A stretch of 64,000 nt of DNA from the NCBI GenBank assembly GCA_951406725.2, contig OX597825.1, positions 17,298,001 through 17,362,000 on the forward strand, written 5' to 3'. Below, piece by piece: positions 52,502 to 63,520 of this stretch (within the stretch, counting starts at the first letter, position 1; the number at the start of each line of letters is the position of its first letter). Source of the DNA: Octopus vulgaris. Lineage: Eukaryota. The notes beneath the pieces are model-generated. The model saw nothing but the letters and a program-made list of their open reading frames with translations, had not been told where the DNA came from and made no database searches. Both the position numbers and the translations under genes were made by a program.

Positions 52502-52545
52502 GTGTATATATATGTGTGTAGATACGTATACATATGTGTATAGGT
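50480..52545. repeat. ~2-kb degenerate (TG/TA) microsatellite field with a ~200-bp higher-order duplication
   Basis: Alternating purine-pyrimidine sequence. 50804-51000 is repeated at ~51007-51212. Confidence 0.9.
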
Positions 52546-52984
52546 ATAAGTGAGAATCTCCTTATTTACCTATAACTCTATCCCCCTTTTTTATATATAT
52601 ATTTTTTTATATATATATTTTTTATATATATTTTTATATATATTTTTATTTTTTTATTTTTTTATTTTTTTTATTTTTTTATTTCTTTATTTTTTTATTT
52701 ATCTATTCTTTCATCTAACTTACCACTGACTCCTTGACCACTCCCCCAAGTATGATATTTTGCGCTATGCCTACCCCCAAAAAAGTCCCCCACCACCACT
52801 CCTTTAAACCTGCCTAAATGTATAAATGCTAATACATTTCTTGTTAAATAGCTTCCTGAAGATATCTCTTGGAATGAAACAGTACTAGTCCTGTAGAAGC
52901 TCCTTCTATATAATAAATTAATTTTACTCTGCTATGTATTGAGTACCTTACTTACTGTGGTTATCCCCGAATCAACCCGGGACC

Positions 52985-52987
<3 letters not shown>
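52540..52987 (+). mobile_element. Hammerhead-bearing short element, family E
   Basis: Shares ~65 bp with the 50215-50480 copies in inverted orientation. Its 3' end runs into (TA)n at 52988. Confidence 0.65.
52850..52901 (+). ncRNA. Type I hammerhead ribozyme motif
   Basis: AGCTTC-CTGAAGA-TATCTCTTGGAAT-GAA-ACAG-TACTAGTC-CTGT-A-GAAGCT: 6-bp helix I, 4-bp helix III with palindromic ACTAGT in the loop, GUA cleavage triplet. Helix II is imperfect. Confidence 0.75.
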
Positions 52988-53028
<41 letters not shown>

Positions 53029-54769: not shown

Positions 54770-55239
54770 ATGCTTTCTACTAGAGGTACAAGGCCTGAAA
54801 TTTGTGGGGAGTGACTAGTTGATTAGATCGACCCCAGTGTTTTACTGGTACTTAATTTATCGACCCCGAAAAGATAAAAGACAAAGTAGACCTGATGTGT
54901 ATACTGGATGCTGTATATTTTACCCTAGTGTTACTGTGATGGCATACACTGTTCTCTCACTCAATAAAAATAATAATAATAATAAAAATAATAATAATAA
55001 TAATATATTTCTTTACTACCCACAAGGGACTAAACACAGAGGGGACAAACAAGGACAGACAAACGGATTAAGTCGATTATATCGACCCCAGTGCGTAACC
55101 GGTACTTAATTTATCGACCCCGAAAGGATGAAAGGCAGAGTCGACCTCGGCGGAATTTGAACTCAGAACGTAACGGCAGACGAAATACGGCTACGCACTT
55201 CGCCCGGTGTGCTAACGTTTCTGCCAGCTCGACGCCTTT
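54770..55239 (-). mobile_element. Two SINE family B copies (54770-54892 partial; 55007-55239 full)
   Basis: TTTATCGACCCCGAAA cores at ~54857 and ~55110, with (AAT)n tracts adjacent. Confidence 0.88.
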
Positions 55240-59516: not shown

Positions 59517-59581
<65 letters not shown>

Positions 59582-59582
59582 G

Positions 59583-59626
<44 letters not shown>

Positions 59627-59660
59627 TACATATATATATATATATATATATATACATATG

Positions 59661-59708
<48 letters not shown>

Positions 59709-59749
59709 GTATATATATATGTATATATATATACCTACATCAATACATT

Positions 59750-59798
<49 letters not shown>

Positions 59799-60084
59799 CA
59801 ACAATTGAGGGTAAAATTAATTAATTAATTATTAATCAATTTCACCAAGTGTTCAGTATGTAAAGGGACCATTTAAGGCGAATTCAAATTATTACATTAT
59901 ATAAAAGGGCTTAGTAAAATAAATTACTTTGCCACATACTGAACTCATTAGAAATAGCAGCTAAAAAAACTTTTTAAAACTATTTCTAATACTTAAAGAA
60001 AATCTCTCTCATATAGTGCTTGCTCAATTCAACTCACGAAAGTATTGGGGTAAAGACATTAAAAAATCAAATGCAAAGGTTATT

Positions 60085-60137
60085 TGAGAACGTACGTTTC
60101 AAGATTAGTCAAACTCGACATTTCTATCATCAGCTCA
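60085..60137 (-). ncRNA. Type I hammerhead ribozyme motif (inverted copy)
   Basis: Exact reverse complement of 60331-60383. Confidence 0.7.
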
Positions 60138-60330
60138 GAACTCCTTGGTTTGGATTTGAAAACACTGAAAGTGGGAGCATACCCTTTCGGCTTCCTATCG
60201 CTTCTGAAGATCTGCTCGAAACTAACAGTGCAAGCATACCCAAAAAATGCAAGCAGATCTTCAGAAGCGATAGGAAGCCGAAAGGGTATGCTCCCACTTT
60301 CAGTGTTTTCAAATCCAAACCAAGGAGTTC

Positions 60331-60383
60331 TGAGCTGATGATAGAAATGTCGAGTTTGACTAATCTTGAAACGTACGTTCTCA
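60331..60383 (+). ncRNA. Type I hammerhead ribozyme motif
   Basis: TGAG-CTGATGA-TAGAAATGTCGAGTTTGACTAATCTT-GAA-AC-GTAC-GT-T-CTCA: canonical CUGAUGA/GAAA core, helix I TGAG/CTCA, helix II AGA..GTC/GAC..TCT, palindromic ACGTACGT helix III. Predicted cut after U60379. Confidence 0.72.
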
Positions 60384-60893
60384 AATAACCTTTGCATTTG
60401 ATTTTTTAATGTCTTTACCCCAATACTTTCGTGAGTTGAATTGAGCAAGCACTATATGAGAGAGATTTTCTTTAAGTATTAGAAATAGTTTAAAAAAGTT
60501 TTTTTAGCTGCTATTTCTAATGAGTTCAGTATGTGGCAAAGTAATTTATTTTACTAAGCCCTTTTATATAATGTAATAATTTGAATTCGCCTTAAATGGT
60601 CCCTTTACATACTGAACACTTGGTGAAATTGATTAATAATTAATTAATTAATTTTACCCTCAATTGTTGAAATTATAATTCATCTCTCTCTATTTAATGT
60701 TTCGGATTTACCGAAAAAGCTTAGCGTTTGCTGATTTTAACCCACGCTGGTGGAAAGGGGAGAGCAGAAATTCTTCGCTTGCATTTTTTGGGTATGCTTG
60801 CACTGTTAGTTTCGAGCAGATCTTCAGAAGCGATAGGAAGCCGAAAGGGTATGCTCCCACTTTCAGTGTTTTCAAATCCAAACCAAGGAGTTC

Positions 60894-60946
60894 TGAGCTG
60901 ATGATAGAAATGTCGAGTTTGACTAATCTTGAAACGTACGTTCTCA
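60894..60946 (+). ncRNA. Type I hammerhead ribozyme motif (second tandem copy)
   Basis: Identical to 60331-60383. Predicted cut after U60942. Confidence 0.72.
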
Positions 60947-61329
60947 AATAACCTTTGCATTTGATTTTTTAATGTCTTTACCCCAATACTTTCGTGAGTT
61001 GAATTGAGCAAGCACTATATGAGAGAGATTTTCTTTAAGTATTAGAAATAGTTTTAAAAAAGTTTTTTTAGCTGCTATTTCTAATGAGTTCAGTATGTGG
61101 CAAAGTAATTTATTTTACTAAGCCCTTTTATATAATATATATATATATATATAAATAGGTAACCTGGTTATAAACATGTATATTTTACGTAAATGAATAT
61201 AATCACAAAGCCCGTTAGATGCAGTGTTCTGTTTTGCTTTGAATTAATACATGATATTTTCTATATAATGCTTCTAGTGAAGCTTTTGTATATACAGGTG
61301 TTTCAGACTTGTAAAACCTTATGTATGCA

Positions 61330-62188
61330 TAGAGGGATGGGGGACCCAAAAGAAACCAGAATTTTGCAATATTATATTATTCACTCAGTTTTACATGTTT
61401 ACACTCTTATCGACTTCAAAGTATTTTCCATTTGAAGCAATGCATCAGTACCAGACGTGTTTTCCTCTGTTCGAAGCAGTCCTTGAACTCTTGCGAAGTG
61501 ATGCTTTTTAACGGTCTGACGTTATTTTCGTTCTCTTTTCCAAATCTGCAAAAAGTTCTCCTTTAATGACATTTTTCAATCGAAGGAACAAAAGTAAAAG
61601 TGGCAGGAAGCAAGATCAGGTGAAGTGGGGATGTGGATAAGCAGGGTCATGCTATTTTTGTTTTCAAAAACTTTCTCACACTTCCCTACGTGAGCGAGGT
61701 ACGAATTTTGCTGTAACTCTGTTCATTCGCAATTCCACGTTCAAAAATCTTTGACAGGAACTCCAGGACACGCCAGTCATATCAACAAGTTTTCATCAAA
61801 CGCCCTGTTCGAGGTTGGACATCAAGCACCAAGTAACTATTCCTAAATATGTGAAAACCAGATGTAAACGTGTGTTTGCTCGTCGAACGACACTTGTAAG
61901 TTGGCGGTTTGAAACATGACAACTGTTTCAGCTGCAGTTTTCTCCAGCAGAAAGTAGAACTGCACGCAAGATCGCTGTTCCTTCGTTTCAGCAATCGCAA
62001 ACAATCAACGAACAGGAAAGAAGCACTGCAAAGTAAAGACGCACCACGTTGCAGTGTGACCCTACCGGATGCTCAAAGTCGGCAGACAGACGACCGAGGG
62101 TTGCATGGAGTGTCTTCTAGCAGTGGAAGCCTGAACTACGACGGGTTACTCCACAGAGAACGTTTGGGTTACTTTTGACTACCTATAT
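61330..62188 (-). mobile_element. Internally deleted mariner element relic
   Basis: Minus strand KNSMTLLIHIPTSPDLASCHFY (YSPDLAP.DF motif) at ~61600-61660. Degenerate terminal inverted similarity CCAAAAGAAACC / GGTTACTTTTGA. Boundaries are approximate. Confidence 0.6.
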
Positions 62189-63317
62189 GTGTGTCAGTTT
62201 ATATATATATATATATATGCATACATGTACATGCGTACATATACATGTATATATGCAAGCATGTATGGATACAGGGCGTCAAATTGAGAAATTAGACAGG
62301 CAGCATAAAGGGCATTCCCTTCGTCAGTTGTCCCCTAGTGTGTGTGTGTGTTTTGCGTGTGTATATATACTATTGTGTTTGTATATATACTAGCTAATAG
62401 CTAATACATATGCCATGTTCCATATGATATACTCTGCAACTGCAACATTTGGTGTGATATCTATGTAAATGTGTCTACATTGAATATATCTGATATCATT
62501 GTATATATTCTTCGTGCAAAATTCGGTTATGTGTGTTTCGTCTACGTCATACTTTATGGTCGAATTTTATTGATGTAATATATTCAAACGAGAGAAATGC
62601 TTGGGCATAAACATAAAAAAATAATACTAAGAATATGTTAATACAATAAAAATGTGAAACAAACGCACACCATACATTGTACAATAAACAATGCCTATAA
62701 ATAGACGTAATTCTAAAAACTAGATAATACGGCTATTCTTTGAAGAATTGAGATTTGAAATAACTTTTTTACATTGATCTGCTTGTGATAAAAGAAAAAT
62801 AACGAGTTATTCAAATTCTATGCTGTATACCATAGCACAAATTCATGGTTATCTGAGGTTACTTCGTAATCAATTTGCATGCAAAATACATTCTAGCAGA
62901 AAGCTAACTGTTAATTTATTCTGAGTCACTTCTTACACCATCATGTTCATGATCAATACATACTTAACTAAAGTGGTAAGTTAACCTAGTGAACATGTTC
63001 TGGTGGAATTGAAATGTACTAAATATGCCAGACATGCTTTCTTTCTAAGAATGCTTGCACCATAGAAATAATATTGCCTCATACGAAGGATCAATCTTCC
63101 AGGCTACATAAACGTCCAGTTAGATCATATAATATAGAGGGGTACAGACCTGGCATGGTCAAAACTGTAATGGTACTTCGGCTTTTCTTCTCAGAGATGA
63201 TATAATTCTGCCTCCTCACCTTCTAGCCTCATCCTTTCCAGTCACCTTATTTTCTTCTTTCTCCATCATCCTTTCCTTCTTTTTCCTTCTTATACTTTTT
63301 CACCTACCAATTCTTAT

Positions 63318-63520
63318 CTCTTTATTGCCCATAAGTGGCTAAACATAGAGGGGACAAACAAGGACAGACAAAGGGATTAAATCGATCAAATCGACCCCAG
63401 TGCGTAACTGGTACTTAATTTATCGACCCCGAAAGGATGAAAGGCAAAGTCCACCACGGCGAAATTTCAGAACGTAACGGGAGACGAAATACTGCTAAGC
63501 ATTTCCCCGGCGTGCTAACT
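63318..63520 (-). mobile_element. SINE family B
   Basis: CTTTATTGCCCA...TTTATCGACCCCGAAAGGATGAAAGGC...GGCGTGCTAAC. Confidence 0.87.

Follow-up and report, generated by a model that had tools for sequence, protein, structure and literature searches.

Animal non-LTR retrozymes, as portrayed by Cervera and de la Pena (2020; PMC7229834) and by Li, Clavereau and Pollet (2026; bioRxiv 10.64898/2026.07.22.740005), are tandem non-coding units of 51 to 972 bp with one type I hammerhead each, a GC content of <50%, no LTR, and a self-paired predicted circle. They share their genomes with Penelope-like elements (PLEs), on which their dependence has been proposed from co-occurrence and from likeness to pLTRs. 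The more recent study surveyed 35 species, and its account names no mollusc among them. Here, we describe a 563-nt unit from Octopus vulgaris that has all of these characteristics, including the length, which the original prediction had placed beyond the size known for metazoan retrozymes. The unit differs from its animal counterparts in being longer than their RNAs of 170 to 400 nt shown by northern blotting and in forming inverted two-armed inserts in (TA)n with two fixed ends, an arrangement that the sections of the two papers drawn on here do not describe. It also differs in that no target-site duplication was discernible and no homologous pLTR was found. Our literature searches found no paper describing a cephalopod retrozyme, while repeat libraries and supplements may hold the sequence; in the main text of an octopus repeat annotation (PMC13282606), the words hammerhead, ribozyme, and retrozyme do not occur.

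The endonuclease-bearing PLEs of the Hydra and Neptune clades (Craig et al. 2021, PMC8557442; Arkhipova et al. 2013, PMC3846280; Frangieh et al. 2024, PMC11167929) are the other closely related system. Their copies are described as inverted and 5' truncated, lying in (TA)n targets and having a tail of 30 to 40 bp on just one of the two ends (PMC8557442, PMC3846280). The enzyme is reported to use two internal reverse transcription start sites that bound the tail, to cut both strands, and to be a predicted dimer (PMC11167929). The octopus copies resemble them in the tandem plus inverted 5'-truncated layout, the one-end-only tail, two apparent internal start sites, the (TA)n targets, and a hammerhead upstream of the ends. 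They differ in having no ORF and in the length of the tail (ca. 100 nt). As for the ribozyme itself, hammerheads that cleave as dimers (newt satellite 2, axolotl HHR_Amex1, and PLE; PMC7229834, PMC6765202) are reported to have a self-complementary helix III region, an unstable monomer fold, and tandem neighbors that can pair, all of which hold for the octopus motif by prediction. The latter is set apart from them by a palindrome of 8 nt, a long helix II that contains a 3×3 internal loop, an extendable helix I, and a switch between U.U and A.A at positions 10.1/11.1.

The copy that we analyzed lies in a window of 64,000 nucleotides (the whole stretch of DNA under study), and its features are collected in Table 1. 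The two hammerhead motifs of the plus arm are, as originally predicted, the same 53-mer at a distance of 563 bp within a head-to-tail repeat, whose direct repeats are 99% identical. Each has the type I set of a CUGANGA and GAAA core (CTGATGA and GAAA), an NUH triplet (GUU), and helices I to III, with the palindrome ACGTACGT in helix III, TGAG/CTCA in helix I, and AGA/TCT plus GTC/GAC in helix II; in motif 1, helix I can be extended to 60316:60400. The span first proposed (60252 to 61135) corresponds to the tandem arm, but the inverted arm, with a third motif of identical sequence, had been overlooked. What had been taken for the end of the unit (ca. 60673) is site B, which together with site A makes up the pair of fixed points at which insertions end; the plus arm itself stops at site A, at 61139. 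The absence of a recognizable reverse transcriptase (RT) or endonuclease was confirmed: no frame longer than 123 amino acids (aa) stop to stop overlaps 59700 to 61300, and none of the frames is kept as an ORF among the copies. Tandem Repeats Finder, with a period limit of 500, misses the 563-bp unit, and Rfam matches of miRNA-like type were discarded as a reflection of the inversion hairpin.

Table 1. Features of the two-armed insertion and its surroundings (positions are those of the window)
Feature	Position	Strand	Description
Two-armed insertion, whole (inverted plus tandem arm)	59790..61139	.	Arms meet at their 5' ends, with the 3' ends facing outward; flanked by (TA)n tracts; locus L001 911-2260
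Inverted arm	59790..60254	-	Unit positions 398-563, then 1-298; stops at site B in (TA)n
Tandem arm	60252..61139	+	Unit positions 436-563, 1-563, 1-196; stops at site A in (TA)n
Inversion junction	60252..60254	.	3 bases common to both arms
Left (TA)n microsatellite, target	59520..59796	.	From repeat scan
Right (TA)n tract, target	61134..61153	.	From sequence
Hammerhead motif 1, type I	60331..60383	+	Palindromic helix III at 60371-60378; GUU triplet; predicted cut after 60379
Hammerhead motif 2	60894..60946	+	Same sequence as motif 1; predicted cut after 60942
Third hammerhead motif, type I, in inverted arm	60085..60137	-	Core at 60133; predicted cut between 60089 and 60088
Cut-to-cut monomer, 563 nt	60380..60942	+	34% GC, no ORF, predicted circle strongly self-paired
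Site A	60570..60578	+	Unit positions ca. 191-199; first of the fixed 3' end points in genomic copies; putative start of reverse transcription
Site B	60673..60677	+	Unit positions ca. 294-298; second fixed 3' end point; A-to-B tail of ca. 100 nt

This insertion is young, and it is probably a dead-end product rather than a source of circles. The plus arm has only 79 nt before motif 1, and in any transcript that enters from further upstream, all 53 nt of this motif are predicted to pair with the inverted arm. For these two reasons, the locus appears to be a poor source of the monomer (60380 to 60942) whose release here had been proposed. Such a release would need a transcription start within a narrow interval; longer arrays are thus likelier sources. 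Elsewhere in the window, a SINE-like repeat of very high copy number is found at 63315 to 63508 and 55006 to 55204, and the decayed multicopy repeat fragments at 61330 to 62140 are, judging by eye, what we take to be DNA-transposon-like.

A genome-wide search for the unit, proposed as a check, was run on 2.8 Gb in 227 contigs and revealed a many-copy family. With the monomer as query, 198 matches were obtained among the best 40 of 1,451 candidates, with full units 95 to 100% identical and copies dispersed across most large contigs. The exact motif pattern gave 1,429 matches, in comparison to none for the reversed control, and therefore the motif is not a chance occurrence; a second, partly overlapping pattern gave 639 matches versus 2 in the control. 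As the first 100 pattern matches fell into 49 clusters, the first pattern implies ca. 700 insertions. Subfamilies are 85 to 99% alike, and the longest array (L134; C3:97078242-97086131) has 14 hammerheads in a row. The copies are tandem units with at least two consecutive ones carrying a complete type I hammerhead, dispersed and multicopy, with a GC content of <50% and no LTR structure. The family thus belongs with the animal non-LTR retrozymes, as a tandem, non-coding repeat bearing type I hammerheads. It is a fresh member of an already known class, and the retrozyme assignment of the original prediction holds, with a Penelope-type insertion footprint in addition.

We studied variation of the motif in 261 copies from 108 of the 111 loci given. 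That other genomic copies should keep the core, as a working ribozyme would require, was borne out: the 11 core positions were intact in 254 of the 261 motifs, and where loci had been selected independently of the motif pattern, this held for 72 of 74 motifs. Mean variation was 0.3% in the core versus 5.8% around it, a conservation that is inflated in part by the use of the pattern for selection and by the youth of the family. For that reason, position-specific change is more telling. N7 appeared as U, C, A, or G, while H17 was U or A and never G; loop II was variable, and helix changes across the 108 loci were mostly wobble preserving. One helix pair had changed from G-C to A-U in 8 of the 108 loci, probably in a single event. 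Judged from sequence comparison, this variation fits a working ribozyme. In hammerhead numbering, positions 10.1 and 11.1 usually form a G-C pair. Here, they are a U.U mismatch (60342 and 60367), and the usual base pair is absent from most motifs of the 108 loci (U.U in 64, A.A in 35, G.U in 6, A-U in 1, and a gap in 2). The two positions switch jointly between U.U and A.A, the A-U combination being restricted to that single locus.

Cleavage as a dimer through the palindromic helix III, also part of the original prediction, is supported by fold prediction: helix III is fully formed only between two copies, and the minimum-energy fold of the plus arm pairs both palindromes, as a double hammerhead needs. 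Nonetheless, the fold that would be active is not the most stable one predicted, since the monomer hammerhead fold reached −1.4 to −2.8 kcal/mol versus −11.6 kcal/mol for the minimum, and the double hammerhead reached −19.4 versus −35.4 kcal/mol for the dimer minimum, a gap of 16 kcal/mol. The 116-nt hammerhead region folded no better than its shuffles (z, +1.1), and Rfam gave no hammerhead match either at the gathering score or at an E value of ≤10. The U.U or A.A at 10.1/11.1, together with the GUU triplet, suggests slow cutting, and we infer that cleavage would be slow, dimeric, or protein assisted. Axolotl HHR_Amex2, which like the octopus motif has U.U at the base of helix II, reached 22% cleavage within an hour in monomeric form and did better when dimeric (PMC7229834), and a PLE hammerhead needed protein for cutting in vitro (PMC11167929). 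On the other side, eight of nine predicted Xenopus dimers showed no cleavage in vitro (bioRxiv 10.64898/2026.07.22.740005).

In order to describe how the copies are inserted, we mapped the arms in 92 loci chosen by motif pattern. The 3' ends fell at unit positions ca. 191 to 203 (A) or 286 to 299 (B), and 155 of the 159 ran into (TA)n, the target of Neptune, Hydra, and Naiad PLEs. Among the two-armed insertions, 61 of the 63 that could be classified (2 of 65 could not) had one A and one B end (P = 2e−16 against 50%), that is, the inverted 5'-truncated arm and one-end-only tail of PLE insertions; the copy in the window is one further case. Of the 159 arms, 133 crossed the predicted cut site and 71 exceeded one unit. 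At the 5' side, 8 breakpoints lay near the cut site versus 6 expected, and those that were remapped were found 1 to 18 nt upstream of the cut. An apparent enrichment at the cut itself was rejected, its six starts at position 1 being an alignment edge effect. Given that the 5' breakpoints are scattered and do not cluster at the cut, cut linear monomers are not the main template.

The same footprint was found in autonomous PLEs of this genome, which holds intact ORFs of 781, 727, and 718 aa, so that PLEs are co-resident here, as in other retrozyme hosts. Ends of one of each type were seen in 2 of 2 insertions of the Neptune-type 781-aa family (tail of 40 nt), in 3 of 3 of the 727-aa family (ca. 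70 nt), and in 5 of 6 opposed end pairs of the 718-aa family (ca. 70 nt), not all of these pairs being confirmed as single insertions. All of these tails are shorter than that of the 563-nt unit, and the distance from the hammerhead to site A is ca. 195 nt in the unit versus 25 to 40 nt in the Hydra-type families. Since the footprint is common to the unit and to the autonomous PLEs, it provides support for mobilization in trans that is independent of the co-occurrence and pLTR arguments, and the one-of-each ends shared by both thus indicate two-site priming by a PLE enzyme. We consider it likely that the insertion is a young copy of a non-autonomous 563-nt retrozyme for which a PLE provided, in trans, the enzyme that placed it into TA microsatellites.

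The cycle that we propose would begin with transcription of longer arrays elsewhere, after which adjacent hammerheads would pair through their ACGUACGU palindromes and cut slowly as dimers. In a third step, some monomers or multimers would be ligated into circles, while others would remain uncut. A PLE RT-endonuclease, probably as a dimer, would then cut both strands of a TA tract, and the two chromosome ends would prime on the RNA at different places, one at A and one at B. Finally, each cDNA would pass the cut site for 0.04 to 3.4 kb, and both 5' ends would be joined to give the inverted two-armed insert.

The nature of the template in the third step was approached through the variation among units. 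After masking variants beside homopolymers (unit positions 113 to 120 and 406 to 407), we counted 119 singleton minor variants versus 31 shared ones, 21 of the latter in two insertions, L136 and L015; 31 of 39 multipiece insertions had no shared minor variant at all. Divergence between units of one insertion was 0.8%, compared to a median of 6.6% between loci (41 loci), and the unit junction was exact in 257 of the 257 cases matching the flanking pattern. Most arrays therefore look, from sequence comparison, as if a single template unit had been copied repeatedly, which either a circle or a homogeneous multimer would produce. A monomeric circle is also plausible as a predicted species, with −150 kcal/mol and a z score of −6.4 versus 40 shuffles (−6.2 for the linear form), the high self-pairing that is characteristic of retrozymes; in this predicted circle, the hammerhead is held in an alternative hairpin. 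On balance, we lean toward circles being part of the cycle. A variant of this step, possible but to our judgment rather doubtful, is that an uncut linear multimer is always the template, with an inherited hammerhead that rarely cuts, no circle, and arrays regenerated by template switching or unequal crossover. Insertions L136 and L015 speak for it: they are mosaics of distinct units with their arms in register, so that their template cannot have been a single monomeric circle and mixed multimers are needed. In L134, minor variants recur at a spacing of about three units, a partial periodicity that may come from a trimeric template or from later unequal crossover. Besides, an end point shared by both arms suggests a shared RNA end, and PLE insertion in vitro is reported to proceed without the need for hammerhead cutting (PMC11167929). 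Against the linear multimer stand the scarcity of shared variants outside the two mosaics, the low divergence within insertions, the strong self-pairing of the unit, and a core conserved across subfamilies. Expression data bear little on the question: contigs of the presumed-RNA runs X1, X4, X9, and X10 cover the unit, strand, ends, and circles not being readable from contigs, and the summed contig depth of the unit relative to the SINE-like repeat (63278 to 63505) was ca. 0.0009 in X1 versus 0.044 in the large run X15, with almost none in run X21. This is a poor measure, and it counts neither way.

How the two arms arise was examined in 53 simple two-armed insertions. It has been proposed for PLEs, from palindromic junctions, that a cDNA can prime on itself (PMC3846280), and the tail has been ascribed to endonuclease resolution (PMC8557442). 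Accordingly, the inverted arm might come from fold-back of the first cDNA and the second end from an endonuclease cut at the other site, with no second priming on RNA, an explanation that we regard as unlikely. Eight of the 53 junctions are indeed near-perfect palindromes, and the short arm of L136 is the distal part of its long arm. Nevertheless, fold-back is geometrically impossible in 16 of the 53 insertions, and the 37 in which it is feasible are no more than expected with shuffled arms (33 ± 2.9), and we rejected strict fold-back as a general rule on these grounds; the register of L015 fits two primings instead. Arms starting within 5 nt of each other were found in 8 of the 53, versus 1.2 expected and a maximum of 6 in 5,000 permutations. 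Two primings on one RNA fit best, and fold-back may explain a subset. Against priming at separate sites stands the report that a PLE in vitro showed no difference between strands in the start site of reverse transcription (PMC11167929). More tentatively, and with somewhat less than an even chance of being right, a dimeric PLE enzyme, probably of the Hydra clade, could grip one RNA, often a circle, at two sites ca. 100 nt apart, in which case the tail of PLEs would be the obligatory mark of asymmetric twin priming.

We also considered whether the unit could be the pLTR of an undiscovered autonomous PLE, its copies being 5'-truncated elements or solo pLTRs, as retrozymes are thought to derive from pLTRs (bioRxiv 10.64898/2026.07.22.740005). 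The comparison extended to five PLE families (781-aa, L117-type, L120-type, L135-type, and 718/727-aa) drawn from 150 of 6,136, 150 of 14,679, and 147 of 5,733 candidates, a coverage that leaves some room for this origin. None of these five had a pLTR with clear homology to the unit; the closest resemblance, seen in the 718-aa family, amounted to 18 of 20 nt out of register (2 of 500 shuffles, with four targets tried) and is a weak lead. No ORF with RT and GIY-YIG adjoined the repeat in the 92 pattern-chosen or the 30 best-match loci, and given that no sampled arm runs into an ORF, the sampled copies are not merely the pLTR of an autonomous element, the outcome that the original prediction had named as fatal to it. 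On the contrary, all 71 arms that exceed one unit enter a further unit, the 24 one-armed copies begin either at (TA)n (17 of them) or in unrelated DNA, and PLE coding remnants near arrays are separated from them by TA tracts or other repeats, all of which makes this origin highly improbable. Two apparent links to ORFs by tblastn were discarded: in L151, TA tracts and other repeats lie between array and PLE remnant, and in L056, it is the TA-flanked 3' end of the array that points toward the remnant. A satellite spread by DNA-level mechanisms alone, with a fossil ribozyme, is scarcely credible, for despite the long near-identical arrays, the dispersal over most large contigs, the fixed 3' and variable 5' ends, the (TA)n targeting, and the inversions are marks of retrotransposition.

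With the retrozyme mobilized in trans as the preferred reading, our best guess for the helper is the young Hydra-type PLEs of 718 and 727 aa, which bear hammerheads and target TA, with the Neptune-type 781-aa family as the alternative. Both Hydra-type families carry the RW(K/R), DKT, CxCX5C, CxxC, and CxH motifs given for that clade (PMC8557442), and their assignment to it follows these motifs. The 718-aa family (40 scored copies of 1,304 candidates, 99% alike) is also represented in the window, where positions 52540 to 52990, with a hammerhead core at 52856 (+), are the 3' end (pLTR, longer end) of one of its copies. The 727-aa family is likewise young, with many intact ORFs and a hammerhead in its pLTR (L281 to L287 and L294 to L296); Pfam found neither RT nor GIY-YIG in it. 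The young 781-aa PLE (L114 44-547 and 4757-5260) has an upstream ORF1, and a motif scan of its pLTR gave no canonical hammerhead. Matches to the unit inside the 718-aa element were rejected as its pLTR, as they correspond to a small two-armed remnant in the 3' untranslated region (UTR). This remnant of a relative of the unit, 220 nt long and hammerhead-less, sits in a microsatellite-rich 3' UTR and travels with the PLE (L292 4255-4467, L291 1577-1799, and twice each in L249 and L293), with an A end one way and a B end the other; it shows shared targets, not partnership.

The finding would add one more animal lineage to those known to have retrozymes. Beyond that, the footprint, in which fixed ends at A and B each occur once and are combined with the inversion and the TA target, constrains the mechanism of PLE integration, and the family supplies a short RNA together with three intact candidate enzymes for reconstitution. 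If the twin-priming reading is true, a protein-free 563-nt family would be a minimal substrate with which the unresolved integration of PLEs becomes directly testable.

Other hammerhead repeats exist in the same genome. Further families were seen at L126 1126-2025, L228, L119 3234(−), L112 5530(−), L131 4314(+), L203, L209, and L290. The hammerhead of L131, whose palindrome is shared with the 563-nt unit, was set aside as belonging to an old unrelated family in which no ORF was found. One of these families is a 495-bp tandem unit with an end motif that resembles site A. Finally, an older, very abundant PLE family (3' ends in L219, L225, L226, and L230) has, by eye, a minimal hammerhead-like motif, with a CUGUCGA or CUGUUGA core in which A6 has become U.
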